From positions 28,848-92,847 of the IMG/VR virus record IMGVR_UViG_3300021962_000055: 64,000 bases of DNA. One strand, given 5' to 3'. The position numbers and the translations under genes were made by a program. This document shows positions 1,817-64,000 of this stretch, one piece after another (position 1 is the first letter of the stretch; each line of letters starts with the position of its first letter). The notes below the pieces were generated by a model. The model saw nothing but the letters and a program-made list of their open reading frames with translations, was not told where the DNA came from and searched no databases. The stretch is from a virus.

Positions 1817-1976
1817 GATTAAGTTTCTCGGTGATCTTGCGGAGCTCACTCAAGATGTCCTGTAAGGTGTGGTTGATCTTATTGAGTGGTTCAGTGGTAT
1901 ACCGATAGGTATCTTGTTGTCGGCGGTACCGTTCGTTGGCTTCACGTGCTGCTTGGTGTCCATAGGGGTCTGACAT
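1809..1976 (-). CDS. small hypothetical protein (MSDPYGHQ...)
   Basis: ATG directly after the stop of the upstream gene, GGAG upstream; fills the operon gap. Confidence 0.5.
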   Translation of the reverse strand: MSDPYGHQAAREANERYRRQQDTYRYTTEPLNKINHTLQDILSELRKITEKLNRD

Positions 1977-1977
1977 G

Positions 1978-4695: not shown

Positions 4696-4708
4696 ATTGT
4701 GCTCCTAG

Positions 4709-7645: not shown

Positions 7646-7650
7646 GGATA

Positions 7651-8364: not shown

Positions 8365-8374
8365 TGTTTGTTCC

Positions 8375-8809
8375 TTAATCGTTGGGCCATTGGTTTTTGA
8401 TGTGCTGTCTGAATCCGTCCCAGTTGGCCTTGGCTGGGTCGTCTATCTCAAACCGCGACAGCGCGGTAAGTAGGAACTCTACTTGCTCTAGCGAGTAAAG
8501 CCTACGTCCTTTCAAAGCTTTTCCAGGAATTTGTTCCGCCTTGGGGGCAGGTGTCCTGTACTTTGCCTTGGGGAGCCACCCTTTGGACTCCCACATCCTG
8601 ATTGTAACCGGTTTTCTATTGAGGGCTTTGGCTAACTCGCCTACGGTAAAGAACTGCCGTTCAACCCCGTTGACCCTCATTATTTTGGACTTAGCTCCGT
8701 TCAGCCGGTCCTCGGCTAGTGGATCCTTGGTTGTCACCTTCCTGTTTTTGGGAGGCGTCCTTCCCGGAAAATCAGGAAGGCTGTTGAACATGTCCAGCGG
8801 ATCTCGCAT
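8375..8809 (-). CDS. MerR-type HTH DNA-binding protein
   Basis: FTVGELAKALNRKPVTIRMWESKGWLP...RRLYS. Confidence 0.8.
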   Translation of the reverse strand: MRDPLDMFNSLPDFPGRTPPKNRKVTTKDPLAEDRLNGAKSKIMRVNGVERQFFTVGELAKALNRKPVTIRMWESKGWLPKAKYRTPAPKAEQIPGKALKGRRLYSLEQVEFLLTALSRFEIDDPAKANWDGFRQHIKNQWPND

Positions 8810-8821
8810 CGGTGCTCCTGA

Positions 8822-9241
8822 TCACTCGTCGTCGTAGCTTTTTTGGTCTACTACTTTGAAAGCCCACGATTCCTTTTCGACGTAAAAACTGGCCAGAGTG
8901 TCTTGGTGCTCTTGATGGTCCCAGCAGTACGTCAATACGGCGTTCTCGGTGATGGTCACGATGGTCTCTTGAACTTCTTCAAGGATACCCAGTTGCTCGG
9001 CCCACTCCTCTGCCGCACCCAAGTCAAATGACCTGCTGACCCTACGTTCATGTTTGACCTGGGTGTTGACCCCAGGTAGCCACTTATGCCCACGGTCGTC
9101 TGGAACACCATGCTCAGAGACCATGGCGAGCAGTTCTTTTTTGAGGCTGTCGGTGCGGGCCGTGGCCTTATCCGAGAACTCCTTGGCTGCTCGGTACTCC
9201 TGAACGAGGCGCTCAACCATACCCTTTTCAATCTTTGACAT
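8822..9241 (-). CDS. hypothetical protein (Gam/Gp157-like coiled coil possible)
   Basis: N-terminal coiled coil followed by small alpha/beta region; in replication operon. Confidence 0.5.
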   Translation of the reverse strand: MSKIEKGMVERLVQEYRAAKEFSDKATARTDSLKKELLAMVSEHGVPDDRGHKWLPGVNTQVKHERRVSRSFDLGAAEEWAEQLGILEEVQETIVTITENAVLTYCWDHQEHQDTLASFYVEKESWAFKVVDQKSYDDE

Positions 9242-9242
9242 C

Positions 9243-15694: not shown

Positions 15695-16129
15695 ATGGAC
15701 GATCTAATCAAATCACTAAAGGTCCTGGTAGCGGACGTGGTGACTTTTTACTTTATGGCGCATGGGTACCATTGGAACGTTGAAGGGGAAGACTTCAGCC
15801 AGTACCACGGCCTCTTTTCTGACATCTATGAAGATGCCTACGGTTCTATTGACGCCATCGCTGAAAACATTCGAAAGCTCGATGACTACGCCCCGTTCAG
15901 TCTAAAAAAATTCAACGAGCTGACCACAGTTACTTTTAAAGATGTAGAGCCCACACCAAAGGCAATGGCTAAGGCTCTTCTAACGGCCAACGAATCCGTC
16001 ATTAAAACCCTGAATGATTCTTTTAAGAAAGCCACAAAGGCGGACGAGCAGGGTATTGCCGACTTCCTCGCTGGGCGTATTGACATGCATAAAAAATGGG
16101 CGTGGCAACTCCGCGCTTCAACCAAGTGA
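15695..16129 (+). CDS. dps: Dps ferritin-like DNA protection protein
   Basis: HWNVEG..F...H..F...Y......DAIAENIR ferroxidase motif; AGGAG RBS. Confidence 0.95.
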   Translation: MDDLIKSLKVLVADVVTFYFMAHGYHWNVEGEDFSQYHGLFSDIYEDAYGSIDAIAENIRKLDDYAPFSLKKFNELTTVTFKDVEPTPKAMAKALLTANESVIKTLNDSFKKATKADEQGIADFLAGRIDMHKKWAWQLRASTK

Positions 16130-16136
16130 GGTAATT

Positions 16137-16430
16137 ATGGCAGAGAAGAAAAAGGATCCCCGCCTTGAGCGCGCTGGTGTATCTGGCTACAACAAGCCCA
16201 AGCGTACCCCCGACCACCCTACCAAGTCACACATCGTTGTAGCCAAAGAGGGAGACAAGGTTAAGACGATCCGCTTTGGTGAGCAGGGGGCAGAGACCGC
16301 TGGCAAACCTAAGGCTGGGGAGTCGGAGCGCATGAAGGAAAAGCGTGCTTCCTTTAAGGCTCGCCATCGTGCCAATATCGCCAAGGGAAAGATGTCAGCA
16401 GCGTATTGGGCAGACAAGGTCAAGTGGTGA
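16137..16430 (+). CDS. small highly basic viral protein (KTIRFG...FKARH...SAAYW family)
   Basis: ATG at 16137 after GAGGT; Lys/Arg-rich. Confidence 0.8.
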   Translation: MAEKKKDPRLERAGVSGYNKPKRTPDHPTKSHIVVAKEGDKVKTIRFGEQGAETAGKPKAGESERMKEKRASFKARHRANIAKGKMSAAYWADKVKW

Positions 16431-16621
16431 TGGCTGCCAAGAAGAAGGCCGAGTCAAAGGTAAACGAGGCTGGCAACTACACCAAGCCCGCACTCCGCAA
16501 GCGTCTGTTCAATGAGATCAAGGCTGGCACCAAGGGCGGCGACCCAGGTGAGTGGTCTGCCCGTAAAGCACAGCTTCTGGCCAAGCGCTACAAGGAAGCT
16601 GGCGGCGGTTACAAGGACTGA
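16430..16621 (+). CDS. small basic protein, N-terminal half of DUF5872-like family
   Basis: NYTKP.LR...GG.PGEWSARKAQLLA..Y...GGGY; TGATG coupling. Confidence 0.75.
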   Translation: MAAKKKAESKVNEAGNYTKPALRKRLFNEIKAGTKGGDPGEWSARKAQLLAKRYKEAGGGYKD

Positions 16622-16623
16622 CC

Positions 16624-16872
16624 ATGGCCAAGAAAGAGCCCCAGAAGGATCTCGACAAGTGGACCAAGGAAAAGTGGCGCACATCCGACGGCTCGGAATC
16701 CAAGGGCAAAAAGCGCTACTTACCAGACAAGGCTTGGAATGCCCTTTCTCCAGAAGAGAAGGCGGCCACCAACAAGGCCAAAGCTGAAGGAAACAGTAAG
16801 GGCAAGCAGTTTGTTCCTCAGCCAAAAAGCATCGCAAAGAAGACTGCGAAGCATAGGAAAGGAGGTAAGTAG
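16624..16872 (+). CDS. small basic protein, C-terminal half of DUF5872-like family
   Basis: KWTKEKWRT...RYLP.KAW..LS..E...TN..K....GKQFV. Confidence 0.75.
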   Translation: MAKKEPQKDLDKWTKEKWRTSDGSESKGKKRYLPDKAWNALSPEEKAATNKAKAEGNSKGKQFVPQPKSIAKKTAKHRKGGK

Positions 16873-25180: not shown

Positions 25181-27843
25181 TAGCTGCTCCTCAACGATTC
25201 GATTTCAAGTTCACGCCTAATCATTGCTACTAACTCCGAAGCAATCTTTTTAAGATCTTGAGAGTTTCCACTACCCATCAAGTTGATCGTTGGGCTCATA
25301 TTGATAGTGGTGCCTCCGGTTACCGATACAGCACCGCCAACAGACTGAGACACACGGCTAGCAACCGGTGTTGGGTCTCCAGACGGGTTAGGTACGCCTC
25401 GACTTTGGAGCACCTCGGTGGTCTGGTAGTCCGGGGCCCAAGACGAGTGGGCTTTCTCGATGGCTGCTGCTACCGCGTAGGGGTCATTACTCTTGTTCTT
25501 TAGAGCGTTGATAACACCCTTTTGGTAATTGGTCATATGGTAAACGCTGGCCAACATACCCTGTTCGTAGTTGGCAAAGTTCCATACGTGCCTTTTACCC
25601 CCCTCCCCAAAGGAGTTAAATGGTGTTGCTTCGCCCAGGTGAGCGCCCCCAGAACTTTGGGGAGAAGAGATGGTAGCGAGTGGGTTGAACTTAGCTCGAG
25701 TTCCTTCCGAGGCAATCCATGCAGACATCACCTGAAGGTTTGCTTCGGTTACAGGTGCCCCAATCCTTCTAAGGAAATCGCTACTCCACTGAGCAATGTC
25801 TACGCCAGATTTAGCGGTGCCCCCACTTGGGCCAAGGTCAATAGACATTGACGTTCCGCTGGCTCCTACGATGCGACCTGGCCTACGCCTTCTCTGCGTA
25901 GTCGACCCATCGGTTTGAACTGCCGTTCCACCAATACTACGTGCTACCCGCTCAGAAATAGAGGCGTAGCCAGAGGTGCCACCCTCCGAAAGGGCCGGAG
26001 AAGCTAGGCCAGTACGCGGACTGTCTCCCATCATTTCGCCAAAGTTACTGTTGGGGTCAAACGGAGCTGCACTTGTCGGCCCATGTCCCCAAGGTGCTCC
26101 CATTCGTTCGTATTCACCACGACCACCCGGAAGGTCTGCTGGCTGCACGTGCCACGGTTCGTTGTTAACGTCTTTGAAGTGGCGTAGGCCGTATTTGTGA
26201 GCGTTGGCTACCACCCAATCAAGATCTCCAGTAAGGTCGGCAGCAAGACCGATCTCATGCATCGATCGTCCCGGAGGGGCTGCTGCTGCCCCGCTGGTGT
26301 GCTCCCAGTATGAACCGTCCCACTGAATGTTCTTCTCACCACGGGAGTTAGTAGGACTGGTTGTCTTCGTGTATCGAGACAGGAACATACGACGTTGCTC
26401 GTCAGAACTACGTACACCTGTACCAATCTTTACGTTGGGGTTATCCGCCATCATCTTTGATAGGCGTTGTTGGAATGTTGGGTGTAACCCAGACATCCTT
26501 CCGCCAGACGACGGAGCTGTTGGGGTATTTGGATCCCCACCAAAGTTCAGGCCACTTGGGTCAGACCCAAACCCCAGCCCATTAGTAACATTTTGGAAAA
26601 CACTTGTGGCAATTCGGTTACTGCCGACCAATCCAAGAATCCCAGACAGACTGTCTTCTAGGGCTCCAAATGCCCTGGTAAGTGACTGTGTCTGACGCTC
26701 TAGGTATGCGTAGTTGTCTACCTGGCGTCTATAAAAGTTTTCATCGCGCCTTGTCTCTAGACGTTGGGTTTCTTCGACCTGAGTAGCAAAGTTCTCCTCA
26801 ATACCCATACGACGGCGGTCGGCTTCTTTACTGGGGTCATACATACCCCGCCCACCCTTACCCTGGAACGTAAGGTTTTGCTGGGCGTATTGAATAAGCT
26901 GGGTCTGCATCTCTTGCGGCACACCCATCATTGTCAACTTGGATCGTGTCACCGATCCTGGGAGTAGGGCTGATTTGACAGTCTTCTCGTCGGTCAACCC
27001 AGCAGCCCGTACGAGGCCTTGCATAACACTCATACCAGAGTTCTGTGTACCACCAGGTCCAATGATGGAGGTACCAGTCATCATGAACATTCGGTTGGCC
27101 ACAGGAGCACTGGCCAAGGTGCCCAGCATCCCGGTTACATCACTGGCCGACATGGAGTAACCGCTCATAGTGCGGAATGCCTCAACAGAGGCGGCCTGCT
27201 GGCGACCACTAAGTCCGATGGATGCTTCCATGGACATCAAGTCATTTATGCCTCCAGCACCAAGACGGTAGTTGGTCAAGGGCATACGATAGGTAGAACT
27301 AACCCCAAGCTGGCTTTGCCCTGTCAACTGCTGGTACAGCACCGACATCCGGTCAGCTGCCAAAACCCCTTCACGCCCCCTGTCAAACCGGGAGTTAGCA
27401 GCGTTAATGCCCATGTTAGCCATGGACAAACCAACGGCGGCTGCGCCAAACATACGCCCACCGCCAGCCATCTTGGTTTTTCCGATGGCGCCCATAACGC
27501 CACCCTCATTGAAGGTTCCTGCAATATCGGCTCGGCGTTCAAACAGCCTCTTTGCAGCGCTTAAGTTGGTACCAGCCATCTTGGTGCCCGCTGCACCACG
27601 AGCGTCCCCACCCCCGTCACCTCCGCCTGCTGCACCCTCGGCACGGTCTTCAAGGTCCCCCATGGCCTCAGAGACGGCCTTCTTAAGACCCTTCTCAAAC
27701 CGTGTGATTACACGATCAACAAAAGCGTTTACAGATTTTTCAATGGCCTGGACATCCTGGTTCACAGAACTTGAAACAGGGCGTGCGTCTCCACCAAGGG
27801 TGGATTCTTCTGCCCCTGACTGTGATAGTGGATCTATTGCCAT
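25180..27843 (-). CDS. tape measure protein with M15 peptidase and lysozyme-like domains
   Basis: Position after chaperones; RS..EQ...APPGRSMHEIGLAAD...EPWH; W..SEG....NPL. Confidence 0.85.
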   Translation of the reverse strand: MAIDPLSQSGAEESTLGGDARPVSSSVNQDVQAIEKSVNAFVDRVITRFEKGLKKAVSEAMGDLEDRAEGAAGGGDGGGDARGAAGTKMAGTNLSAAKRLFERRADIAGTFNEGGVMGAIGKTKMAGGGRMFGAAAVGLSMANMGINAANSRFDRGREGVLAADRMSVLYQQLTGQSQLGVSSTYRMPLTNYRLGAGGINDLMSMEASIGLSGRQQAASVEAFRTMSGYSMSASDVTGMLGTLASAPVANRMFMMTGTSIIGPGGTQNSGMSVMQGLVRAAGLTDEKTVKSALLPGSVTRSKLTMMGVPQEMQTQLIQYAQQNLTFQGKGGRGMYDPSKEADRRRMGIEENFATQVEETQRLETRRDENFYRRQVDNYAYLERQTQSLTRAFGALEDSLSGILGLVGSNRIATSVFQNVTNGLGFGSDPSGLNFGGDPNTPTAPSSGGRMSGLHPTFQQRLSKMMADNPNVKIGTGVRSSDEQRRMFLSRYTKTTSPTNSRGEKNIQWDGSYWEHTSGAAAAPPGRSMHEIGLAADLTGDLDWVVANAHKYGLRHFKDVNNEPWHVQPADLPGGRGEYERMGAPWGHGPTSAAPFDPNSNFGEMMGDSPRTGLASPALSEGGTSGYASISERVARSIGGTAVQTDGSTTQRRRRPGRIVGASGTSMSIDLGPSGGTAKSGVDIAQWSSDFLRRIGAPVTEANLQVMSAWIASEGTRAKFNPLATISSPQSSGGAHLGEATPFNSFGEGGKRHVWNFANYEQGMLASVYHMTNYQKGVINALKNKSNDPYAVAAAIEKAHSSWAPDYQTTEVLQSRGVPNPSGDPTPVASRVSQSVGGAVSVTGGTTINMSPTINLMGSGNSQDLKKIASELVAMIRRELEIESLRSS

Positions 27844-32625: not shown

Positions 32626-33422
32626 CAGTAGTATGCGTTAGTTGTTTGACCTGACCTTGGGGAAGTATCCACGAACACATCCTCTCGCAGGTTGTCTTCC
32701 TGTACCTCGTGGTCGATAACACCAGTATCGACTGGTGGCCACAGGCGCTCCATTGGCGAGTAGTCGCCAAACTCCTTTGGCTTGTACAGTGGCACAAGAC
32801 GGTTTGTACCACGGGAGATACGGCGCAAGGTAAAGACCTCAATACGGTCAATGCCAATGTTAAGAGCGGTGGCGTGACGCTGGTACTCGGACTCCCACTG
32901 CATTAGAAGACTCTGGGCCATCCTAAACCGCTGGCTGGCAGGGATGTGCACTGACTCTGAGGTGATGACGTCAATGTCTCGGCTGTACTCGGTCATTAAG
33001 GCCCATAAGCATTCACAAATGGTTGCAATGCCAATGGCGTTGATTAGTACATCTGACATCTCGGAGATTCCAACACCAATTCCTCTAACGTGTTTTTCTA
33101 CAGCCCTCTGTGTGTAGAAGGTCAGATCATCAGGGGTAACCCATTCATAGTAGTAACCCTCAATAAGGATCTTTGATCCAGAGGCAGGCAGTGACGCTAG
33201 TCGAAGGATGCCGTTACGCTCATCAAGCGAATAAGCAGACGGAGCTAGTTCGGTTGTTGACCCACCAACTGTGTACACCGCAATCCACAAGCTTGTGGAA
33301 TCGATGTTGGTATGGCCCAACTCATAGGTCCTCCCAGCTACATCGAAGGTAACCTGAAAGAACCTAGGGAAGTCACGAAGATAGGTTCGTGCTATGTTGC
33401 TGATGTCGGAAAGGGTAGCCAC
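32625..33422 (-). CDS. head-tail adaptor / neck protein
   Basis: Synteny downstream of capsid genes. Confidence 0.55.
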   Translation of the reverse strand: MATLSDISNIARTYLRDFPRFFQVTFDVAGRTYELGHTNIDSTSLWIAVYTVGGSTTELAPSAYSLDERNGILRLASLPASGSKILIEGYYYEWVTPDDLTFYTQRAVEKHVRGIGVGISEMSDVLINAIGIATICECLWALMTEYSRDIDVITSESVHIPASQRFRMAQSLLMQWESEYQRHATALNIGIDRIEVFTLRRISRGTNRLVPLYKPKEFGDYSPMERLWPPVDTGVIDHEVQEDNLREDVFVDTSPRSGQTTNAYY

Positions 33423-33434
33423 ACCTACAGTTTA

Positions 33435-46651: not shown

Positions 46652-46879
46652 CTAGGGGCTATCCGGAAATTGCACTATTTCAGATGGAATCCAAGTTGCA
46701 GGAAAGTCTCGTAGTTGTTGGCGGTAGGTTGCCCAAGCCTGCTTATCTACGGGAACATCAGCAAGTTGCGTCCAGTCAGACGCAGTAAGGAGCGCATCAC
46801 GTTGAATACGCAAACGCTCAAATAGCCATTCATCGGGAATAATTTCAGAGTCGAATGGTCCTCGTAAATTAGTAAACAT
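46652..46879 (-). CDS. tail fibre assembly chaperone
   Basis: LR..RD.LL..SDWTQL.D.P....W..YRQ.LRD.P. Confidence 0.85.
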   Translation of the reverse strand: MFTNLRGPFDSEIIPDEWLFERLRIQRDALLTASDWTQLADVPVDKQAWATYRQQLRDFPATWIPSEIVQFPDSP

Positions 46880-47793
46880 TATGCCGCCTCGTAAATAATG
46901 TGACCGCTAATAACATCTCCTGTGGTAATAGCGATTGCACCACTGCCAAAATAGTTGCTATTAGCGTGTGGAATCAATCCTACTTCCGTAGAACTATAAG
47001 CAAACGCTATGCCCGAATAGTGGACATTGGCACTCTGATCATAGATATGCATATTTCCCGCAATAGCATAGGTTGCATTCGCCTGAAATGTTTGAGGCAA
47101 ACTAACCCGCACGGCATTTCCCGCTGTGCCAGTTCCTGAAATCAACAACGCAAACTGCCAGTTGATCATTTTGCCTATTTGGGCATAACGGCTAACATAC
47201 GTTCCGAAAGTAACGTTTACACCTTGGTTGATTGTGGTAGTAAAAGAAGTCCATCCAGTATTGGATCCTCGGGCACTGGTAAATGCCGCAAGGTCACCCG
47301 TAGTGTCAGGTAAGGTTATTGTGCGGTCAGCCGTCAAAGTAGTCGGTTGCAAAGTCACCTCATACGACGACGTGCCACCAGCACGACCAGCGAGAGCAAC
47401 ACCATCCTGAGTAGCACCAGAGCGAGCAGTAATTGTACCAATAACATCTAACGCCGTACCGGGAGATGTTGTATTTACACCAACACGGTTGTTGGTTGAA
47501 TCAACTTTTAGCGTGTTGGTGTCAACTGTTAGATCACCAGAGACTGCCAAAGACCCCAGCGTGCCAACGCTCGTGAGAGATGATGCAGTTACATTTGAGG
47601 CCAAGGTTGCGCCAGTGATGTCGGATGCGTCTGTTGCATAAAGAAGCGATGTCCATGCGGTGGAACCTGTGCCAACCTTCAATTTTCCGGTATCGGTTTC
47701 GAATCCGATCTCACCAGCGGCAAGGGTAGGGTTCACTGAAGTCCAGTTGGCGGCGGTGTCCCGCCGTACTTGAATTAATGCATTACGAGCCAT
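46879..47793 (-). CDS. fibre protein with Mtd_N domain
   Basis: IQVRRDTAANW...NP.LA.GE.GFETDTGKLKVG. Confidence 0.85.
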   Translation of the reverse strand: MARNALIQVRRDTAANWTSVNPTLAAGEIGFETDTGKLKVGTGSTAWTSLLYATDASDITGATLASNVTASSLTSVGTLGSLAVSGDLTVDTNTLKVDSTNNRVGVNTTSPGTALDVIGTITARSGATQDGVALAGRAGGTSSYEVTLQPTTLTADRTITLPDTTGDLAAFTSARGSNTGWTSFTTTINQGVNVTFGTYVSRYAQIGKMINWQFALLISGTGTAGNAVRVSLPQTFQANATYAIAGNMHIYDQSANVHYSGIAFAYSSTEVGLIPHANSNYFGSGAIAITTGDVISGHIIYEAA

Positions 47794-56437: not shown

Positions 56438-56453
56438 TTATCAATTGTATCAG

Positions 56454-56527
56454 TACCGGGTGTGGGAGTTGAACCCACCTACGAGTGTGTATAAGACACC
56501 TTGCGTCAACCGGACGCATCACCCGGT
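56454..56527 (-). tRNA. tRNA-Ile(UAU)
   Basis: Cloverleaf ACCGGGT/ACCCGGT, TGCG/CGCA, GGTGT-CT TAT AC-ACACT, GTGGG-TTCAACT-CCCAC; no encoded CCA; G at position 8. Confidence 0.85.
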
Positions 56528-56564: not shown

Positions 56565-57659
56565 ATGAACGGTGTAGATGTTGTTGGATTCTTTACTGGA
56601 GAATTTGGTCTTGGTGAGGCGGGGCGGCTTCTTACTGAGACTCTTAAAAAGAGTAATGTCCCAGTGTCAACTATCAACATAGAAGTTCCAAACCACCGTA
56701 ACAGGCATCCCTTTGTACCAGATAACGCCTGGCATCACAAAATTATGATTGCTAGTGTCAACTCTACTGAGATGCCTTTGATCTTGCAACAACATGGTGC
56801 AGAAGTGTTTCGTGAACGACATGTCATCGGACAATGGTTCTGGGAATTAGAAGATGTACCAAAGCAGTACCGTGTTGGTTACCAATTTGTTGACGAGCTT
56901 TGGGCCCCAACAAAGTTTATCCAAGAGGCTGTAGGGAAGTACGCTCCAGCCGACATGGAAGTACACCATATGCCGTTGCCGTTGATAACTCCAGCAATAA
57001 AAAAAGATGTTACTAAAGAAAACTTTGCGCTTGATCCAGACAGGTTTACATTTTTATTTACTTTTGATTTTTGTAGTATCGAAGCCAGAAAAAACCCGGC
57101 TGCGGTTATAGAAGCTTTTAAAATTGCGTTTCATGAAAACGAGGGACCGGTACTGGTCATCAAATCCCTCAATGACCATGTGTTTCCACACTCCCTTAAG
57201 AACTTGATGGTTAAGGCTGATGGTCGGAGCGATATTAAATTCTTCAATCAGCATCTTGACCATGACTTGGTGTCTGCGTTAAGAAACGTGTGCGACTGTT
57301 ATGTCTCCTTACACCGATCAGAGGGTCTTGGCCTAACGATATCGGAAGCAATGTGCCTGGGTAAGCCCGTTATTGCAACTGCCTATTCAGGAAACATGGA
57401 CTTCATGACTGAGGACAACTCGATCCCAGTTCCGTGGGAATACACGTACATCAACACAAACCAGGGTCCATACGAAGCCGGTATGCGGTGGGCGGAACCC
57501 AACACCTCCTTTGCCGCCAACGCCATGCGCAAGGTTTATCAAGATCCTGTGTGGGCAGCCAACCTAGGCAAAAAAGCACAGAGGGATATCGCTAACAGGT
57601 TCTCGTTTGAGGCTACTGGGGCCAATATGGTGGAGCGACTCAGTAAGGTTCAGGTGTAG
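56565..57659 (+). CDS. GT4-family glycosyltransferase
   Basis: RKNP..V..AF, CDCYVSLHRSEGLGL..SEAM..GKPVIAT.YSGN.DF. Confidence 0.92.
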   Translation: MNGVDVVGFFTGEFGLGEAGRLLTETLKKSNVPVSTINIEVPNHRNRHPFVPDNAWHHKIMIASVNSTEMPLILQQHGAEVFRERHVIGQWFWELEDVPKQYRVGYQFVDELWAPTKFIQEAVGKYAPADMEVHHMPLPLITPAIKKDVTKENFALDPDRFTFLFTFDFCSIEARKNPAAVIEAFKIAFHENEGPVLVIKSLNDHVFPHSLKNLMVKADGRSDIKFFNQHLDHDLVSALRNVCDCYVSLHRSEGLGLTISEAMCLGKPVIATAYSGNMDFMTEDNSIPVPWEYTYINTNQGPYEAGMRWAEPNTSFAANAMRKVYQDPVWAANLGKKAQRDIANRFSFEATGANMVERLSKVQV

Positions 57660-58284
57660 TACCTATAGGTACGGGCCATACATCGTATGGTTTGTAAAGC
57701 GGGTGGTCTCGGACAGTGCCAATCCACGCTTCAGCGCAGTGCCGGTGCTCCCGAGAGCACTTTTCTAACAGATTTATGTGCTGACCGGACGCCCACCAGA
57801 AGTTTCCGCCCCAAAATGGGTTCGGATTGTCCGGATTTATGCGGTAATAGTGGCATCCGACCGTGGATGCGCAGTCTTCGAGGGCTTGGACACACTTTTC
57901 CCACTCAACAACAAGCTTTTTGGTCATTCCACGACGCCAATTCTCGTTTACAGGGGCATAATTGGCTGCTCCCTTGGTGTGGCAGTACAAAAAGTGGGCT
58001 TCAGGGTCGGTTTTAGCGAGTTCCCACAGCGGATCGAGCGTAATTTGCTCCCATCCGGTCGGTCCACTGGCTATAAGGTTGCAATTTAAGCCTTGTATGT
58101 CAAAAAAATCGAGTACTTCGGTGATATTTCGGTTCGATCCAACGCAACCTACGTTAAATGAGGTCAAATTGTCGTACAAACCGTACTGCCGTAGGGCTCG
58201 TACGTGGTCTGACACCTTGTCTTTCCACGCCCCATCAGCGTAAACGTGGTAAAAGTGGTGAATTGGTCGCGTTACTTGCGCCAT
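57640..58284 (-). CDS. putative glycosyltransferase-like viral protein
   Basis: LY.HTKG...WR..M...GNFWW...E.WIG motif. Confidence 0.5.
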   Translation of the reverse strand: MAQVTRPIHHFYHVYADGAWKDKVSDHVRALRQYGLYDNLTSFNVGCVGSNRNITEVLDFFDIQGLNCNLIASGPTGWEQITLDPLWELAKTDPEAHFLYCHTKGAANYAPVNENWRRGMTKKLVVEWEKCVQALEDCASTVGCHYYRINPDNPNPFWGGNFWWASGQHINLLEKCSREHRHCAEAWIGTVRDHPLYKPYDVWPVPIGTTPEPY

Positions 58285-58484
58285 ACAGACGGCGAGTGGG
58301 CCTCTTCAACCGCCCGAGCGTGATCTTCGTCGGTGTACAACCGAACAATGTGGATACAAGGATCGTTTTCGTAGAAATCCTCGTACTCAGCCTCGCTCAT
58401 TGGAAGGCCATCATGGGTCTCACACACTGCTGGACCGCACCAATTGTTGTCCATTCCGTATTTAAGCCACTCATTGAAGTCCAT
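58272..58484 (-). CDS. hypothetical protein (MDFNEWLKYG...C.THDG.P...DPC)
   Basis: ATG after AGGA; coupled downstream. Confidence 0.65.
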   Translation of the reverse strand: MDFNEWLKYGMDNNWCGPAVCETHDGLPMSEAEYEDFYENDPCIHIVRLYTDEDHARAVEEAHSPSVWRK

Positions 58485-58491
58485 TTTGTTC

Positions 58492-58803
58492 CTATTCGTC
58501 AAATAGTGATGGTTGGTAAAAGGTTTCCCCGGGCTCATTCTTTCCGTGCCCAGCCGCGAAGTTAGCACTACGAGGGGTAGTTGTCACCTGTTCTCTTTGT
58601 TGAGGGTTGGCCTTAGCGGCCTCTCGATCAAATTCACGACCTTTACCCAACCTGTAGGCAGCGCATCGAGAGCAGAACAGACCAAGAACACGGTCACCCT
58701 TGGCGTTACGTGCCCGCATACCAAGGTTTTCGGTAGCTGGGACGCTCTGCCCTGATTCAGCGCAGTCATGGCAGGGCCGGGAGGGGCCCATGTATTTGGC
58801 CAC
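58492..58803 (-). CDS. hypothetical protein with two CxxC motifs
   Basis: CHDC...CSRC. Confidence 0.55.
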   Translation of the reverse strand: MAKYMGPSRPCHDCAESGQSVPATENLGMRARNAKGDRVLGLFCSRCAAYRLGKGREFDREAAKANPQQREQVTTTPRSANFAAGHGKNEPGETFYQPSLFDE

Positions 58804-58805
58804 TG

Positions 58806-59180
58806 TCAGTCACCAAGCTTCTTGCGAAGCCCGTAGGCAGAGGCAGCACCGATAGCTGCACCGGCAACTGCACCTGGGACGCCTGAAGCGATACGTGATG
58901 GGTCGAGGAACTCACCTACGGTTCCGTGCATCATGGGGTTAATGGTGACCATGCCACCTAGTGCCCCACCAATTGCCGCTCCGGTGGCCATACCACGAGC
59001 CATACTGTCGGTGCTCATGGCCCGACGCATACTCTCAACGGTCCTACGACCGGCGTGGATCTTGCGACCACGATGATCAGTTGCGTGGTGCGCGGTGGTG
59101 TAAGGAGCATCGAGTACTTCGTCGTGGTAGTCGCCGTACCGCTGGCCACCTGGAAACAATACGTCGTCTGGTTTGAACAT
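58806..59180 (-). CDS. hypothetical glycine-zipper membrane protein
   Basis: GAAIGGALGG and GAVAGAAIGA. Confidence 0.6.
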   Translation of the reverse strand: MFKPDDVLFPGGQRYGDYHDEVLDAPYTTAHHATDHRGRKIHAGRRTVESMRRAMSTDSMARGMATGAAIGGALGGMVTINPMMHGTVGEFLDPSRIASGVPGAVAGAAIGAASAYGLRKKLGD

Positions 59181-59342
59181 GGCTGCCCCTAAGTCTCTAG
59201 TAGCTCTTACGCTGTATAAGCATATTATAGATCATCGCGTAACCGCCCAGGTAACCCGGAAAATTTCCAATTTCACGGCTACCAAGGCCGCGCAACCGGC
59301 CAGATAGCAATAAATACTGAAAAGCGTATTACGCCGGTACCA

Positions 59343-60014
59343 TTACACGGTACCGGTGAACACCCACCTAGTACCGGTACGTAATCCCTTAGAAGTGATG
59401 TTCTTGAACCCAATATCCTGCATCATGCCCTGAACAGCTGCCGGGTTGAATCCCCAGAAGTTTGTATCGTCACTGTTCAACTCATCCTTAATATAGTACC
59501 GAGCTGCTGGGTATGGTATGTCTAACATGTCCACATGGGTCTCGATGACTACTAAACCGTTGGACATGGCCTTGGCCTTCTCTAGGTACCCAATCGGATC
59601 TTTAGCGTGGTAGATAACCCCAAGCATGAGTACGATGTCAAACTTCCCATGCTTCTTAGGACTCAACTCCTCAACAGACGCTACTAACTTCTCTACGTTG
59701 GAGTTCCTGTGCTTCTTGGCAAAGTCGAATCCAGAGTCACCGACTTGAGACCCGTTGTGGATAACTCTTCCCTTCCATACGAACTTGTCGGAAGCGACCA
59801 CTCGGGCCGCATTACGTTGTTCACAAGCAAATGAGTAATACCCATCCCAGGCCCCAATGTCCAGTACAGACAGTCCAGATAGATCTTCAGGTAGTCCTAG
59901 GTTCTCAAAGGTGTTAGGGGCCTCTACGCTCAGCCCATTGGTGGTGTGCTCCCCAATCTGAATGGGGTGCCACCATACGATGGAGTTCATCTCGTCTAGT
60001 GTACTTTGATCCAT
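59343..60014 (-). CDS. class I SAM-dependent methyltransferase (CmoB/DUF1698-like)
   Basis: VLDIGAWDGYYSF, FDIVLMLGVIYH..DP; AGGAGG RBS. Confidence 0.85.
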   Translation of the reverse strand: MDQSTLDEMNSIVWWHPIQIGEHTTNGLSVEAPNTFENLGLPEDLSGLSVLDIGAWDGYYSFACEQRNAARVVASDKFVWKGRVIHNGSQVGDSGFDFAKKHRNSNVEKLVASVEELSPKKHGKFDIVLMLGVIYHAKDPIGYLEKAKAMSNGLVVIETHVDMLDIPYPAARYYIKDELNSDDTNFWGFNPAAVQGMMQDIGFKNITSKGLRTGTRWVFTGTV

Positions 60015-60045
60015 AGATCCTCCTTGTGAATAGGTCTACATTACC

Positions 60046-60399
60046 TTATCCACAGGTGCCCAGTTATCCACAGGTAACCCCCCCCATTTCGAATAGGGCT
60101 ATTACGCAGTGGTGTGTTTATCGGCGGGTGGGTACTGCCCCCGCTCCGGCGACCTGCTAGCGACTAGTGATGGGGGTCACCCCCCACCCCCCACTTAGTT
60201 GTGGGGTGGTGGCATCGGGGTGCGCTAGTCACTAGCGTACCTGATCCTCCCCTGCTAGGCAAGGCGCCTACCGGCCTGGCAGAAGCATCATGGGGACATC
60301 TGTGGTTATCCACAGGGTCAGCCCCCTACCAGTGGTTATCCACAGGGTTATCCACAGGCCTAGCAATGGGTCTATGAGTTATCCACAGGTTTATCCACA
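60046..60399 (+). promoter_or_regulatory. cluster of seven perfect DnaA boxes (TTATCCACA)
   Basis: At 60046, 60064, 60306, 60336, 60348, 60379 and 60391; an inverted copy lies at 61185-61193. Confidence 0.85.
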
Positions 60400-60490
60400 G
60401 AGGTGGGGGCTGGCTAGTCACTAGCATTACGGTGCGCGGAGTTGCTATCTCTCTGTCCAGTGTCCATTCACTACCAGAGAGGGGAACATC

Positions 60491-61132
60491 ATGGCTACCA
60501 TGACCCGCAGCAACATCCAACCGATGACCGACATCGTCGAGGCCTTCAAGGCTGACTACGACAAGGTCGTCGCTGACAACGGCAACGGTGCCGTCGAACT
60601 GTACGCCCGAGGCGTGCTGATTGGCGATGCCGGTGACCTGGTGCGCGACCTCGCGTTCGACCTGGCGAAGCGCTTCGGCGCCACCTGGGGCGAGAGCGAC
60701 GTCGCTCGTGCGTTCGGTCTCAAGACCGCCGCAGCCAAGGTCATGACCGAGACCGTGCGCTACCTGGCCACGCTCACCGATGACGGCACTCCGGCCGTCG
60801 ACGTGCGCAAGGCCGTGTACGCGGTCCACAACCAGACCGGTACCGGTGTGGTCGCGCTGTCCAACTTCCTCAAGGTCAAGGCCTCGAAGTTGAAGGACGG
60901 CAAGACCCTCCCGTACAAGGCGGTGGTCAGCGCATCGGACCACCTCGTCAAGGAGGCCAAGAAGGCGGGCGAAGAGCCCAAGCCCGAGGCCACCCCTGCC
61001 GAGCAGGTCGATGCCATCATCAAGCGCATCGAGCGCGCTCTCAACGACCTCGCCCCCTTCACGGAGGCCGGTTACGAGTTCGCACTCGAGCAGTCGGTCA
61101 AGCTCGCCGCCATCAAGGCGCGCTTGGCCTGA
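60491..61132 (+). CDS. hypothetical early protein
   Basis: GAGGGG RBS; very strong G/C third-position bias; possible HTH (ESDVARAFGL). Confidence 0.85.
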   Translation: MATMTRSNIQPMTDIVEAFKADYDKVVADNGNGAVELYARGVLIGDAGDLVRDLAFDLAKRFGATWGESDVARAFGLKTAAAKVMTETVRYLATLTDDGTPAVDVRKAVYAVHNQTGTGVVALSNFLKVKASKLKDGKTLPYKAVVSASDHLVKEAKKAGEEPKPEATPAEQVDAIIKRIERALNDLAPFTEAGYEFALEQSVKLAAIKARLA

Positions 61133-62038
61133 GAGATGGTGACTCCGCGCATCTAGTGTGACGTGACCGGCCAGCCTCCTCCCCTGTGGATAAGCCGCGC
61201 TAGTGGCTAGCGAGTAGGCCTGATAAGGGCCTGTTTGTAATCCATGGGAATCACATGGGAGGGGTGCTGACCTCTGTGTAACAACGCGCGAACCCCCCAT
61301 CCTGCCAGGCAATACGTAAGCCGAACGGCCCAACCGCAATGTACTCCGGTACGTTGGTCAAGGAGGTATGGCCAAACCAACTTATGTTGGGGGCGCAGGA
61401 TGTGGACGGCCTTCAAGCCTGGGTTGTAAGCCGCGCCCTGTAACCGCAGAGCAAGGGAGTTGGCCTCAGTGCCGGGATATCCCTGTCCCCTACATCAACG
61501 TGTAAGAGTTAGGCCCGCCCAAGTGGTGGGGCGACCACCCCTAAGCAAGGTGGATACTACATCGCCCCCATGAGAGCCACGGGCAGAAGCGACCCCCACA
61601 AGGGGCGCGCGCACGACCCAGCGAGTACACCATACTCGCATGCCGTCCGGTTGTATCCGGGTAAGTCTGGTACCAGGCGGGAGACACTCTGACCACGTTC
61701 ATAAGGGGCCGAGGATGCCGAGGGATTACCCCTCGGTGTCCTCTGCCCCTTCCGACCATTGGGAGCAAGGCCGGTGGGTTGGTGCTAGTCACTAGCCCAC
61801 CGGCCAAGATCTTAGTCAATATTGTAATTGACTAGGACAAGCGGCCATCGCCACACCGGGCAGGCCGCTTGTTTAACCGGGGGCGAGGGTACGCTACTAC
61901 TAGCAACCCTTGCCCCCACCTCTTGGGGAGTCGACCGACCCCCATAAGGCAGCAGGCATACCCCCTATCATGCCAGCGCCATCGGTCCCCTTCTCCCCGA
62001 TGGTTGGAGTGGCTCATGAACCCTTGAAAGGGGAACCC
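61133..62038 (+). ncRNA. candidate large structured non-coding RNA
   Basis: No credible ORF; many hairpins with G-U pairs on the + strand; boundaries uncertain. Confidence 0.5.
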
Positions 62039-62293
62039 ATGAGCAAGTTCCACGTGGAGCACTACGATGTCCTCGGTCTGTTGGGCATCGACCACCTCAT
62101 CTTGAGGTGGGAGTACACAAAGGAAAGGGTCTGCCCGGTCACCGGTGCGCCGGTGGCGTTCGAGCAGGTCCTCGCGGGGCAGTACCACCTGCCCCGCATC
62201 GGTGGCGACTCGGCCAACGGGTACGAAGTGTACCCGACCGAGTCGTACCTCCGCCACCTGGCCGACAAGGTGTCGGCCTTCCTCGCTGACTGA
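62039..62293 (+). CDS. hypothetical early protein (MSKFHVEHY...)
   Basis: AAAGGGG RBS; GC3-rich codons begin at this ATG. Confidence 0.8.
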   Translation: MSKFHVEHYDVLGLLGIDHLILRWEYTKERVCPVTGAPVAFEQVLAGQYHLPRIGGDSANGYEVYPTESYLRHLADKVSAFLAD

Positions 62294-62439
62294 GTCAGCA
62301 CGGTTAGGAGAACCAACCGAGCCACTCCAACCATCAACCGTTCTCGGACAGGCGCGCGTCGCGACTGTGCTGCCGTCCAAACCAATCTGCTCCTAGTGGC
62401 TAGCGGGCCCGTCTTCCTACGACCCTTGAAAGGGGAAAT

Positions 62440-62883
62440 ATGAAGACACACAAGAAGAAGCCCAAGACAGACAACACCATCCGCCGTGAGGCGGAGGTCG
62501 CCCTCTCCAAGTTGGATGGGGCAACCCGCGAGCTGACGGGATCCTCCCAGGAGGAAGCCGACGAGCTGATGGCTCTCCTGCGGGAGTGCCAGAAGCACAT
62601 CAGCGAGATGGAGTTCGTGGCCCGTAAGGGCTACGCCATCATGAAGCGGGCAGAGAAGGCGCTCAAGTTGCCGTCTCTGGAGTTGCCCAGCAAGGCAATG
62701 CCCTTGGCCGACTTCCAGAAGGAAGTCAAGCGCCAGGAGAAGGCATTCAAGCAGAAGGCCACGGAGTCGATGAAGAAGATCGTCGACGCCGACTACGCCC
62801 TTCTCAAGGGCCTCGATGCCGTGGCGGACGCCATCAGCAGCCGTATCACCGAGGCCGCATACCGAGGGTTCGCCCTCAACTGA
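62440..62883 (+). CDS. hypothetical coiled-coil early protein
   Basis: AAAGGGG RBS; GC3-rich. Confidence 0.8.
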   Translation: MKTHKKKPKTDNTIRREAEVALSKLDGATRELTGSSQEEADELMALLRECQKHISEMEFVARKGYAIMKRAEKALKLPSLELPSKAMPLADFQKEVKRQEKAFKQKATESMKKIVDADYALLKGLDAVADAISSRITEAAYRGFALN

Positions 62884-62920
62884 CCCAGACGGGTCCGCTA
62901 GTCACTAGTAGCACACTCCT

Positions 62921-63023
62921 GGTGGGAGCCCTCTTATCCCCCATAAGAGGAGAAGGCGCGGCGCTTACAACCCCCATAAGAGGGGAGGGTGCCGGTGTGG
63001 TTCGACTCCACCTCCCACCACCA
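62921..63023 (+). ncRNA. tRNA-like RNA with non-canonical D and anticodon arms
   Basis: GGTGGGA/TCCCACC acceptor stem plus A-CCA; GTGG-TTCGACT-CCAC T arm. Confidence 0.7.
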
Positions 63024-63035
63024 TGCTAGCCACTA

Positions 63036-63108
63036 GCCCACGTAGCTCAGGGGATAGAGCAACGGTTTCCTAAACCGTGTGTCGCAGGTTCGAATCCTGC
63101 CGTGGGCA
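63036..63108 (+). tRNA. tRNA-Arg(CCU)
   Basis: GCCCACG/CGTGGGC, GCTC/GAGC, ACGGT-TT CCT AA-ACCGT, GCAGG-TTCGAAT-CCTGC; no encoded CCA. Confidence 0.95.
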
Positions 63109-63254
63109 CTCTGGTCAAAAGGCACGAGATGGGGCATCACTCCCCATCGGGACTAACGGGGGCTTGCCACCCGTGAACCAGACGAGTTTATCCGTTCTCG
63201 ACAAAAACGGACAATTCTCCCAGTCCCAGCTAGTCACTAGAGGAGGTGACAACA

Positions 63255-63488
63255 ATGGCAAAAATTACCATCACAACGTCCACCGAGACGCTTCAGTTGC
63301 TGGAGGACATCCTCCAGTCATACGAAAATGCGTTGGACGACCACCTGTACCGCATCTTTCCCGAGTCTTCTACTCGGCAGGCTCAGGGCGACATCGCCAC
63401 CATGCGTGCCGAGATGAACCGAATGATCGGTCAGGCGGAACGCCAGATCGAGAAGACCCGCCCCGACTTGTCGGGAGTCCACGACTAG
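63255..63488 (+). CDS. small hypothetical early protein (MAKITITTS...)
   Basis: AGGAGGTGA RBS fused to CTAG motif. Confidence 0.75.
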   Translation: MAKITITTSTETLQLLEDILQSYENALDDHLYRIFPESSTRQAQGDIATMRAEMNRMIGQAERQIEKTRPDLSGVHD

Positions 63489-63503
63489 TCACTAGGAGGT
63501 GAC

Positions 63504-63743
63504 ATGAACAGCATCCAATTCTCTCTCCCCAATGGGTTCACATTCTCTGTGGCCCAGTGGGGAAAGGTTAAGGAATGCGCCGTTCTCCGGAGCGATGATT
63601 TCGTTCCTCTGGGCGTGTGGTACGCACCAAGCCTTGAAGACGACAGCGTTCTCATTCTCAGTGGGAGCGCAGAAAGCTTGGCAGCGGCCATGGAAAGAGC
63701 AATCGATTGGGCGAAAGACAACGCGCCCAACGCTAGTCACTAG
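63504..63743 (+). CDS. small hypothetical early protein
   Basis: AGGAGGTGAC-ATG. Confidence 0.75.
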   Translation: MNSIQFSLPNGFTFSVAQWGKVKECAVLRSDDFVPLGVWYAPSLEDDSVLILSGSAESLAAAMERAIDWAKDNAPNASH

Positions 63744-63751
63744 GAGGTGAC

Positions 63752-63907
63752 ATGGCGCACATGATGGGCGACAAGCGCGCCCGCAACGAGTGTCCCTGGG
63801 GTTGCTGTTCCGACAGCAAGGCTCAGGGGAAAAGAGGTGCCTACAGGTGGCACCGCATGTTCCGCTCCCGTGAAAAGCGGGAGTGGAGGAAGGAGCAATG
63901 GTCATGA
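63752..63907 (+). CDS. 51-aa basic Cys-containing protein (MAHMMGDKRARNECPWGCC...)
   Basis: AGGAGGTGAC-ATG; not in ORF track. Confidence 0.7.
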   Translation: MAHMMGDKRARNECPWGCCSDSKAQGKRGAYRWHRMFRSREKREWRKEQWS

Positions 63908-64000
63908 GAACCAAGCGCAAGGCCCGAGCCATCGGGTCGGATCGGTGGGGCACCATCTACCGATACGGCCTTTACGAGGACATGGACATCCTCCAGCAGG
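63904..64000 (+). CDS. hypothetical protein, truncated at window edge (MRTKRKARAIG...)
   Basis: AAGGAG RBS, ATGA overlap, open to the edge. Confidence 0.6.
   Translation, partial: MRTKRKARAIGSDRWGTIYRYGLYEDMDILQQ

Follow-up and report, generated by a model that had tools for sequence, protein, structure and literature searches.

What does a short palindrome do when it recurs at nearly every gene junction of a phage's early region? The question is raised by one end of a 64-kb stretch of DNA (the window, positions 28848-92847) of the 92,847-bp IMG/VR record IMGVR_UViG_3300021962_000055, an uncultured phage hereafter called G000. The first-pass annotation of the window had noticed 11 copies of the motif CTAG-N3-CTAG between 60157 and 63743, and had proposed that they might be sites for a dimeric phage regulator, RNA-processing signals, or decoys for a host protein that recognises CTAG. 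We put at roughly 45% the probability that the array consists of duplex-DNA recognition sites for a phage-encoded, dyad-symmetric factor that would co-ordinate the early arm of the genome. This reading is built on the array itself, its restriction to one genome arm, its dyad symmetry, the selection acting on its half-sites, and the private motifs found in related lineages at orthologous junctions.

Size, placement, and anatomy of the array

An exact scan with CTAGNNNCTAG returned 11 matches in the window, all within 60157-63743, and dinucleotide-preserving shuffles of the window gave a mean of 0.71 and a maximum of 3 (0 of 100 reached 11). The variants are those originally listed: CTAGTCACTAG seven times, CTAGCCACTAG three times (two of which, at 61200 and 62393, read CTAGTGGCTAG on the plus strand), and CTAGCGACTAG once. 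The scan also confirmed that the first 60 kb of the window have none. The initial count was correct and understated the array, which amounts to 27 copies in the whole record, against 1.4 expected and 2 for a reversed-pattern control.

The window ends where the record ends, and the array runs on from the record start. The first and last 197 bp of the record are identical except for one mismatch (A/T at position 39), so that window positions 63804-64000 correspond to record positions 1-197. This overlap indicates that the molecule, classed as linear in IMG/VR, is circular or terminally redundant, and effectively closed. Our gene map, which is based on our own heuristic calls, shows two divergent arms: a plus-strand arm of ~20.4 kb, which extends from a strand switch at record position 88,862 across the junction to 16,646, and the remainder of the genome, where genes are almost all on the minus strand and encode replication, structural, and lysis functions. 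The plus-strand early arm represents 22% of the genome and contains 26 of the 27 copies, from record position 89004 through the junction to 11663 (P(≥26/27) = 1.8e-16); the genome-wide scan thus excludes an even spread of the motif. Fifteen of these copies lie beyond the window, at record 252-11663 (locus L005, given in record coordinates). The sole copy outside the arm, at record 22798, fits a chance expectation of ~1. The array covers the first ~16 kb of the arm, which is hypervariable, and its first three copies are in the divergent control region; gaps above ~1 kb between neighbours are rare.

Every copy in the window is intergenic or overlaps a stop codon, as first described; this rule has three mid-gene exceptions elsewhere in the arm. 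Among the 26 arm copies, 10 contain or adjoin the stop codon that ends the preceding gene, 8 are at most 36 nt from the next start, and several end 8-14 nt before an ATG with the Shine-Dalgarno (SD) sequence alone in between. The three exceptions are exact copies deep in long genes (record 1510-2844, 6494-7327, and 11024-12229), at 0.48, 0.44, and 0.53 of the gene length, and all three use the only frame that is free of stops (CTA GNN NCT AGN). The density of deep in-gene copies in genes of the arm is ~12 times that of the remaining genome. As a result of their presence, neighbouring copies (one-mismatch ones counted) are at most ~1.1 kb apart. The use of the stop-free frame and the ~12-fold in-gene density suggest that sites may be needed along the DNA, beyond the junctions alone.

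The 27 copies define a 13-bp element, G-CTAG-Y-N-R-CTAG-C, whose dyad symmetry spans positions 0-5 and 7-12. A pyrimidine occupies position 5 in 27 of 27 copies (p 1e-8) and a purine position 7 in 25 (p 2e-6); the outer positions are G in 14 (position 0) and C in 18 (position 12). The central base alone is free (C in 14, G in 10, and A in 3 copies, read on the plus strand), and at this one asymmetric position the strand bias is not significant (p 0.31). The motif is sharply defined: there are 26 exact and 6 one-mismatch copies in the arm, and the latter, of which 12 occur outside it, are barely enriched there.

A closely related sequence allowed us to follow the evolution of the sites. This is L198, an IMG/VR contig of 12.7 kb; the metagenome that yielded it also contains L010, a contig with a capsid protein identical to that of G000. 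L198 matches the G000 arm at 83-88% identity, and 13 copies occupy orthologous places in it. When the sites are aligned, the eight half-site positions prove to have changed in 6.7% of cases (2% once one lost in-gene copy is set aside), compared with 16.4% in the flanks and 23% in the central triplet, where the changes preserve the Y-N-R pattern. The slower change of the half-sites, relative to both flanks and centre, indicates that they are under purifying selection and that the centre is not.

Private palindromes in related phages

The PHROG matches of G000 include tail sheath, baseplate wedge, portal, large terminase, major head protein, family A DNA polymerase, and helicases, which identifies it, from its gene content, as a contractile-tailed (myovirus-like) phage. 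Its closest annotated relatives are the Streptomyces phages BRock, GiJojo, and pSt2308 (~113 kb; capsid 59% identical) and Bacillus phage BCD7 (45%). Related capsids are found in at least 597 IMG/VR contigs, several of them near-complete (91-99 kb). Within bacterial genomes, the nearest capsid (82%) is on a contig of a metagenome-assembled genome of Microbacteriaceae (Lysinibacter), and others at 51-61% are within large Streptomyces, Kitasatospora, and Terracoccus contigs, i.e., in prophages. These actinobacterial contigs suggest that the host is probably an actinobacterium. A six-frame search revealed no tyrosine or serine recombinase in G000 (no Phage_integrase match and only a sub-threshold antisense Resolvase match), and the block adjoining the arm start encodes a GT4 glycosyltransferase, a class I S-adenosylmethionine (SAM) methyltransferase, and a glycine-zipper protein. 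Given both observations, we treat the phage as probably lytic.

The CTAG-N3-CTAG array is not a common property of this group. BRock-like phages and BCD7 have 0-2 copies and no array, and so do 16 IMG/VR relatives in terms of copy number (0-2), including some with a 90-94% identical capsid protein. What the relatives have instead was revealed by an unbiased count of inverted repeats in four complete genomes, G001-G004. G001 has 16 copies of GTCTCA-N3-TGAGAC, and G002 has 16 of CCTAA-YNR-TTAGG (in its fuller form (G)C-CTAA-T-S-A-TTAG-G(C), with the 13-mer CCTAATSATTAGG). There are 5 copies of TGCGTTAC-S-GTAACGCA in G003 and 11 of TGTCCCAC-S-GTGGGACA in G004, the latter motif being also present in G021 and G022. 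In these four genomes no copy falls outside the homologous plus-strand arm, and most are at junctions. G005 uses GACCT-GAGG-AGGTC, of which G023 has only 4 copies. Altogether, seven of the relatives that were fully analysed (G001-G005, G021, and G022) have their own palindrome in the same arm, with 5-16 copies each. Among 80 arms anchored on the SNF2 helicase, we found further private arrays—GTTGA-S-TCAAC (10 copies), GACCT-N4-AGGTC, GTGAC-N4-GTCAC, and GAACA-N2-TGTTC—and none in the distant AT-rich phages of this set.

The motifs differ even at orthologous positions. The junction between the AAA and vWA genes has CTAGTCACTAG in G000 (1487) and CTAATCATTAG in G002 (31979), and the end of the vWA gene likewise has the private motif of each phage (2841 in G000, 33384 in G002). 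The core proteins of these two phages are 80-90% identical. G000 has no G002-type or mixed copies; the G002 arm has three mixed CTAA...CTAG copies, plus one copy that overlaps a relic of the G000-type motif and an SD. Conversely, L363 and G022 keep the G004-type motif though their core proteins are only 60-80% identical to those of G004. Judging from these comparisons, motif turnover is episodic. Motifs that are homogeneous within a genome and divergent between genomes bear the signature of a co-evolving trans-acting reader.

The arrays also differ in format. In G003 and G004, a conserved 17-mer caps 13-16-bp hairpins whose lower stems are G-rich and C-rich, and the stems of G000-G002 are of 4-7 bp. 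The palindrome of G005 and G023 includes the SD, always points the same way, and is placed 1-9 nt upstream of the ATG. Four G004 copies are followed, 14-16 nt on, by a conserved GATAGTGA box. The nine in-arm GTTGA(G/C)TCAAC copies of L115 are 7-9 nt upstream of a TAnnnT box, itself 6-7 nt before the ATG (the tenth copy is ~11 kb away). There, nine consecutive early genes (L115:3700-9900) each have a hairpin (GAGTC-GAAT-GACTC or GGGCC-GAAT-GGCCC), the palindrome, TAnnnT, and a leaderless ATG, which reads as a regular per-gene layout of leaderless promoters with the palindrome centred near -26. L176 has a repeated 55-bp junction cassette made of a hairpin, the palindrome, and an SD. Tandem clusters with copies 11-59 bp apart occur in L328, L143, and L146; those of L143 adjoin DnaA boxes and look iteron-like.

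Some observations accompany these arrays. The L328 cluster consists of eleven CGTGAG-C-CTCACG within 300 bp (L328:5950-6260), spaced by ~20-22 bp, on an unrelated GC-66% viral contig that also encodes a member of the ParB-fold family discussed below; it looks like an iteron or centromere cluster. An exact search of IMG/VR for the 19-mer made of the motif plus SD gave no match, and a 15-mer search recovered L198, plus a GC-63% group in which each locus has 1-3 copies. In the latter (L191, L194, L196, L197/L204/L212, L208, and L213), the copies are perfect CTAGTCACTAG or CTAGTGACTAG, often ~2.5 kb apart; they are far above chance, and the contigs are by composition unrelated to G000. Finally, intergenic hairpins with CGCAA(T/C)CGTG occur just downstream of several copies, both in G000 (L005:2858-2890 and 549-582) and in G002 (27779-27809 and 33392-33427), and are 83-97% identical between the two phages while the adjoining palindrome differs.

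A proposed dyad-symmetric reader and its rivals

How would such sites work? We propose that each copy could be a cis-acting duplex site, and that its reader would be a sequence-specific dimeric factor with two-fold symmetry, encoded by the phage and evolving together with its sites. Bound in the control region and at almost all junctions of the arm, this factor would switch the early arm as a whole. Its likeliest action, by analogy with stoperators and with the operators of phiC31 and KorB, would be to shut off or block early transcription during the lytic programme. We infer three things beyond the observed pattern: that the reader would be a protein, that it would read DNA and not RNA, and that it would silence transcription. 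The reading of DNA is tentatively favoured by the complementary classes at positions 5 and 7 and the outer G/C symmetry, by the free centre between conserved half-sites, by the mid-gene copies, and by the low stability of the bare hairpin. Were the element a triloop hairpin, positions 5 and 7 would fall in the loop, where nothing would call for complementary classes, which favours DNA. The three copies clustered upstream of the first early gene count for this reading, and the precedents for many-site operators in the non-structural regions of phages and plasmids may be counted with them. Of the proposals of the first-pass annotation, a site for a dimeric phage regulator is therefore the one best supported, by the dyad symmetry through 5-6 bp per half-site, the free centre, the purifying selection, and the private motifs; the two candidate regulators that it named found no support, as shown below.

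The precedents that it had invoked, mycobacteriophage stoperators and start-associated sequences (SAS), fit in the number of copies, the location in a non-structural arm, the association with stops and starts, and the lineage-specific sequence; they do not fit in symmetry, because the G000 element is palindromic and theirs are asymmetric. Stoperators occur in Cluster A mycobacteriophages (L5, Bxb1) and R4-like Streptomyces phages as tens of 13-14-bp sites, in short intergenic gaps and often overlapping stops or starts, and their sequence differs between related phages and co-evolves with the reader (PMC6550527, PMC9283540, PMC10276819). They are asymmetric, oriented with transcription, present in both arms, and bound by the monomeric immunity repressor of temperate phages. 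G000 resembles them in its many copies (26) in gaps and at stops and in the private motifs of its relatives. It departs from them in having a strict palindrome, with a dyad at positions 0-5 and 7-12 and no significant strand bias at the centre, in one arm only, and without any repressor or integrase that we could find. This lack of any recognised integrase or repressor module makes it unlikely that the sites serve as stoperators in lysogeny.

The SAS of Cluster K phages are asymmetric 13-bp sequences that contain the SD, 3-7 bp before the ATG; together with the extended SAS (ESAS), they are short repeats in the non-structural half of the genome, at junctions, and sometimes include the upstream stop codon (PMC3203893, PMC12699233). 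ESAS are imperfect 17-bp inverted repeats with a variable 4-13-bp spacer and a subcluster-specific consensus, which their authors suspected to be protein-binding DNA sites (PMC3203893, PMC12699233), and the function of both was still not established in 2025 (PMC12699233). The G000 copies share with them the restriction to the non-structural arm (26/27). Unlike SAS, they have no internal SD, only 8 of 26 are within 36 nt of a start, three are mid-gene, and some are beside tRNAs; unlike ESAS, they are exact 4-6-bp inverted repeats, their centre is fixed at 3 bp (effectively 1 bp), and degenerate copies are scarce. G005 and G023, whose palindrome includes the SD, are closer to SAS.

Other comparisons are more distant. 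Work by Ingham and colleagues in 1994 reportedly described the conserved inverted repeats (CIRs) of the temperate phage phiC31, operators of the c repressor, as a conserved ~17-bp inverted repeat with many intergenic copies in the early region. G000 resembles them as a repeated, conserved inverted repeat in the intergenic early region of an actinophage, and differs in that no homolog or repressor gene was found in it. The KorB operators (O_B) of plasmid RK2 are 13-bp odd palindromes with a C/G centre, in about a dozen dispersed copies, at which a dimeric ParB-family reader silences at a distance. The 13-bp odd palindrome of G000, its 26 dispersed copies, and the ParB/Srx-fold protein encoded in its arm recall this system and parS sites, from which it is set apart by a ParB-fold protein that does not track the motif across phages. 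The PeSL cassettes of T4-type phages are said, after work by Arbiol and colleagues in 2010, to be units of a host promoter and a terminator at the boundaries of small early genes in hyperplastic regions, and to have no private short palindrome. The units of a hairpin, a palindrome, and a promoter-like box or SD in L115, L176, and G004 are similar to them, and the G000 copies, which have no promoter boxes, are not. REP (repetitive extragenic palindromic) elements are imperfect palindromes of 20-40 bp spread genome-wide, with a cognate Y1 (HUH) transposase (RAYT); the G000 element is 11-13 bp, exact, and in one arm, and there is no Y1_Tnp match in six frames. The hairpin promoters of N4-type phages, with a 5-7-bp stem and a 3-nt loop, are used by a phage-encoded single-subunit RNA polymerase. 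The stem-loop format of G000 is similar, and Pfam and PHROG recognised no RNA polymerase among the proteins scanned, several large ORFs being without annotation. Intrinsic terminators combine a GC-rich stem with a U tract; the terminator scan found none at the window sites, and most G000 stems are of 4-5 bp. A literature search for an identical motif system returned only the precedents cited here.

Several results weigh against the proposed dimeric DNA reader. We found no cognate protein for the motif. A Pfam scan of 92 small proteins gave a single helix-turn-helix (HTH), the MerR_1 domain of the MerR-like protein named by the first-pass annotation, and HTH_3 and RHH_1 had no match in six frames. 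The MerR-like protein was rejected as reader because its recognition-helix segment, RKPVTIRMWES, is identical in G000 and G005, whose motifs are unrelated. The other candidate, the first early protein (60491-61132), has no Pfam, PHROG, or NCBIfam match, and its family has ~10 representatives among 1.8 billion proteins. Its AlphaFold2 (AF2) model (pLDDT 84) is all helical, with fold matches at noise level (Z at most 6.6) and none to a DNA-binding fold. The first genes of other arms also encode Ala-rich ORFans, of 190-250 aa, with no detectable homology to it or to one another (hhalign probability <3%). Its place downstream of three copies is classical for an autoregulated early regulator; on balance, it is neither supported nor excluded. 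Two complete or near-complete relatives, G006 and G031, lack a strong or clear array. The half-site centres are ~6-7 bp apart, which is tight for classical HTH dimers. Some traits are RNA-like: the hairpin at 61785 with its plus-sense G.U pairs, the G003 and G004 copies at the apex of 13-16-bp hairpins, the 4-5 junction copies that can pair with the downstream SD, and the copy that abuts the 5' end of a tRNA.

Other arm proteins shared with relatives were also considered as readers and rejected: a 143-aa pyrimidine-dimer glycosylase, a 131-aa HNH endonuclease (73-92% conserved), an acidic 117-aa protein, and two basic proteins of 106 and 147 aa, one a DUF8033 protein and the other an unassigned helical protein (best atlas score 0.75). 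Group-specific profiling leaves a 54-aa and a 274-aa ORFan for G005/G023 and seven ORFans for G004/L363.

The main rival would place the element in RNA, as a small hairpin in polycistronic early transcripts that is read by a phage RNA-binding protein or endoribonuclease, or pairs with the SD, and so separates or tunes early genes and tRNAs. All arm copies follow one direction of transcription, and many are near stops and starts in the proportions given above; one ends at the first base of tRNA-Arg, and copies flank a tRNA-like element. The stem at 61769-61805 (minimum free energy (MFE) -38 kcal/mol, z -5.5; minus strand -27 kcal/mol) is 11 kcal/mol better in plus-sense RNA because two G.U pairs exist only there. 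At the CTAGTCACTAGGAGGTGAC junctions, and in the RNA of site 10, the predicted MFE fold GUCACU/GGUGAC closes over the SD (-7.4 kcal/mol). The SD-containing palindromes of G005 and G023 and the hairpin-capping ones of G003 and G004 point in the same direction. Several features nevertheless weigh against an RNA-level role, which we regard as the less likely of the two. A stem of conserved sequence under a free loop is the reverse of what proteins usually recognise in RNA hairpins, the symmetry of positions 5 and 7 has no role in a triloop, and the bare hairpin of G000 reaches only -3.5 kcal/mol, with most stems at 4-5 bp. Copies within genes would expose coding RNA to cleavage or folding, the one-mismatch copies are not of the wobble type, and the strand bias of the centre base in G000 is not significant (C 15, G 9). 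It is improbable that the palindrome is a linker at cassette boundaries, shared by phages with the same motif and helping them to shuffle early genes, in the manner of T4 PeSL cassettes or of the homogeneous attC sites of chromosomal integrons. This would suit the hypervariable gene content of the arm (the rest of the genome is 50-90% conserved), the copies that bracket every kind of unit, tRNAs included, the ~300-bp indel between G000 and L198 that falls exactly at site 539, and the repeated junction of L176. Yet orthologous junctions carry different motifs in G000 and G002, so the motif changed in place and did not arrive with cassettes; in-frame mid-gene copies do not fit a boundary; 11-13 bp are too short for homologous recombination; and neither a tyrosine or serine recombinase nor a Y1 transposase was found in six frames.

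A role as promoter element, in which each copy would be an activator or appropriator site or a substitute for the -35 box at nearly every early gene, seems less probable again. The layouts of L115 and G004 speak for it, as does the paucity of sigma-70 consensus promoters in the G000 arm (3 against 9.5 expected, with the caveat that the host's own promoters are not reliably predictable). In G000-G004, however, there is no TAnnnT at any preferred offset from the motif, several G000 copies leave room only for an SD before the ATG, some copies are mid-gene, and the Pfam and PHROG scans of proteins revealed no phage RNA polymerase or sigma factor. For G000 we rejected this role, given the lack of a -10 box at a fixed offset and of sigma-70 consensus sites at the copies. 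The sites might also be parS-like, loading a ParB/Srx-fold protein that would segregate or compact phage DNA with a ParA/MinD-like partner. The candidate is a basic 277-aa arm protein (L005:6494-7327) with the signature LLDGQHRLHA. Its AF2 model (pLDDT 92.5, with a 58-sequence alignment) has a ParB/Srx fold in the first 99 residues; the best match (Caulobacter ParB; VIA) has Z 7.7 and a root-mean-square deviation of 3.4 Å over 89 residues, and the 30 best structure matches are all ParB, KorB, Noc, PadC, sulfiredoxin, or other proteins of this fold. Among the phages compared, it is present only in G000, L198, and G002, which have CTAG or CTAA motifs, and the odd palindrome has the format of the KorB operator. 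Two genes upstream, L005:5487-6002 is ParA/MinD-like, but it matches only over the N-terminal ~40 residues (P-loop), below family cut-offs. The protein does not follow the motif: L363 has a 46%-identical homolog and eight copies of GTCCCA-N3-TGGGAC, the motif of G004 and G022, both of which lack the protein. Arrays occur without it in G001, G003, G004, and G005, and any palindrome array accompanies its family in only 6/80 and 6/47 contexts. L363 and G004 thus appear to refute most of this explanation, which we consider very improbable, and led us to reject the protein as reader. Its family comprises at least 530 uncharacterised proteins without Pfam domain, widespread on phage-sized contigs, including human-gut ones. 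As for the decoy or target of a host CTAG-recognising protein, or a by-product of restriction-site biology, CTAG is part of several restriction sites and rare in some bacteria. The relevance of this rarity, raised at the outset, is not borne out in the window, where CTAG is not depleted (176 vs. 192 expected). Flanking and inner positions of the element are also constrained, and G001-G004, whose capsid protein is 86-94% identical, have 0-2 copies and unrelated palindromes at the same, even orthologous, positions. This last point rules out the decoy, to which we give practically no credence.

Returning to the dimeric DNA reader, the comparative data lead to a broader idea that we hold to be doubtful at present. 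Many phages of this actinophage clade might use a system of private addresses, in which the lineage would tile its early arm with its own strict short palindrome, recognised by a fast-evolving reader from a family that escapes current domain libraries. Changes of specificity would come in episodes and affect dozens of orthologous sites in concert (e.g., from CTAGT to CTAAT between phages with 80-90% identical core proteins), and the motif would serve as a regulatory barcode insulating the early programmes of co-infecting relatives. Many-site, lineage-specific motifs are known in the non-structural arms of phages (stoperators, SAS/ESAS, CIRs), with a function established only in the temperate cases bound by a repressor. 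Here, the same logic would operate in a clade of myovirus-like phages that are uncultured and apparently lytic, with environmental relatives in the hundreds. The strict palindrome, the in-frame copies within genes, seemingly driven by spacing, and the abrupt concerted replacement of the motif between close relatives appear unusual. They make these phages a natural experiment in which a regulator and dozens of sites change specificity together. The covariation of motifs and proteins over the at least 597 capsid relatives in IMG/VR offers a computational handle on a new family of nucleic-acid readers, and the motif can readily serve to mark the early arm and groups of regulatory compatibility.

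Sites and neighbouring features in the window

Table 1. Features of the window, in window coordinates unless stated otherwise.
Feature	Coordinates	Strand	Details
Array part in window	60157..64000	+	Continues past the record end into record 252-11663
Control region	60015..60490		Divergent, where the arm starts; three sites, with seven TTATCCACAG (DnaA-box-like) repeats placed among them
Site 1	60157..60167		CTAGCGACTAG; control region, between minus-strand gene 59343-60014 and first plus-strand gene 60491-61132
Site 2	60225..60235		CTAGTCACTAG; control region; with its flanks, the RNA stem reaches 11 pairs in plus sense and 6 in minus sense
Site 3	60414..60424		CTAGTCACTAG; 66 nt upstream of first early gene
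First early gene	60491..61132	+	213 aa; downstream of three copies
Site 4	61200..61210		CTAGTGGCTAG; directly past first early gene
Site 5	61785..61795		CTAGTCACTAG; top of 16-bp hairpin, stem 61769-61805
Site 6	62393..62403		CTAGTGGCTAG; 36 nt upstream of gene 62440-62883
Site 7	62898..62908		CTAGTCACTAG; past gene 62440-62883, before tRNA-like element
tRNA-like element	62920-63020		Between two copies, upstream of tRNA-Arg; weak Rfam tRNA-Sec match (23.6 bits, E 0.2); no ARAGORN call
Site 8	63026..63036		CTAGCCACTAG; final G is base 1 of tRNA-Arg(CCT) 63036-63109
Site 9	63230..63240		CTAGTCACTAG; abuts SD of gene 63255-63488
Site 10	63485..63495		CTAGTCACTAG; first TAG (63486-63488) is the stop of 63255-63488; followed directly by GGAGGTGAC, ATG at 63504
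Site 11	63733..63743		CTAGTCACTAG; second TAG (63741-63743) is the stop of 63504-63743; followed by SD, ATG at 63752
MerR-like HTH protein	8375..8809	-	144 aa, replication module
G000-specific block	56565-60014		GT4 glycosyltransferase (plus strand, beside tRNA-Ile 56453-56527), three ORFans, glycine-zipper protein, class I SAM methyltransferase

Two particular sites had attracted attention from the start, and both descriptions held: one copy indeed supplies the first base of tRNA-Arg (site 8), and another is at the apex of a 16-bp hairpin (site 5). This hairpin lies in a stretch of ~900 nt between the first and second early genes (61133-62038) that has no convincing ORF and no Rfam family match. 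A second near-palindrome (CTTAGTCAAT...ATTGACTAGG) follows the hairpin at ~61808-61835. Of the known RNA families in Rfam, only the tRNA and the weak tRNA-like match were found.

The control region is also rich in DnaA boxes. Between 60040 and 60400, seven co-oriented TTATCCACAG, a perfect DnaA-box consensus, are placed among the three copies, and an inverted TTATCCACAG is found past the first early gene, at 61180-61195. The same k-mer is enriched in relatives G001-G003. The region is possibly a replication origin or a DnaA-dependent control region.

Upstream of the arm, in the G000-specific block, the genes for proteins of 364, 214, 103, and 223 aa have no homolog in G001-G004, and those of 70 and 124 aa have partial ones. 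Further away in the window, a minus-strand gene (46879-47793) encodes a 304-aa protein with an Mtd_N domain (N-terminal domain of the major tropism determinant, E 1.5e-17), which hints at a receptor-binding protein of the type associated with diversity-generating retroelements. A plus-strand island at 15695-16872 encodes a ferritin/Dps-like protein followed by three small basic proteins. The latter are 82-100% identical across relatives, compared with 50-90% for other proteins, and by this comparison the island is an unusually conserved module. Finally, a minus-strand gene at 863-1147 encodes a SpoVS-family (Alba-like fold) protein (E 1e-21) that is 73-90% conserved in relatives.

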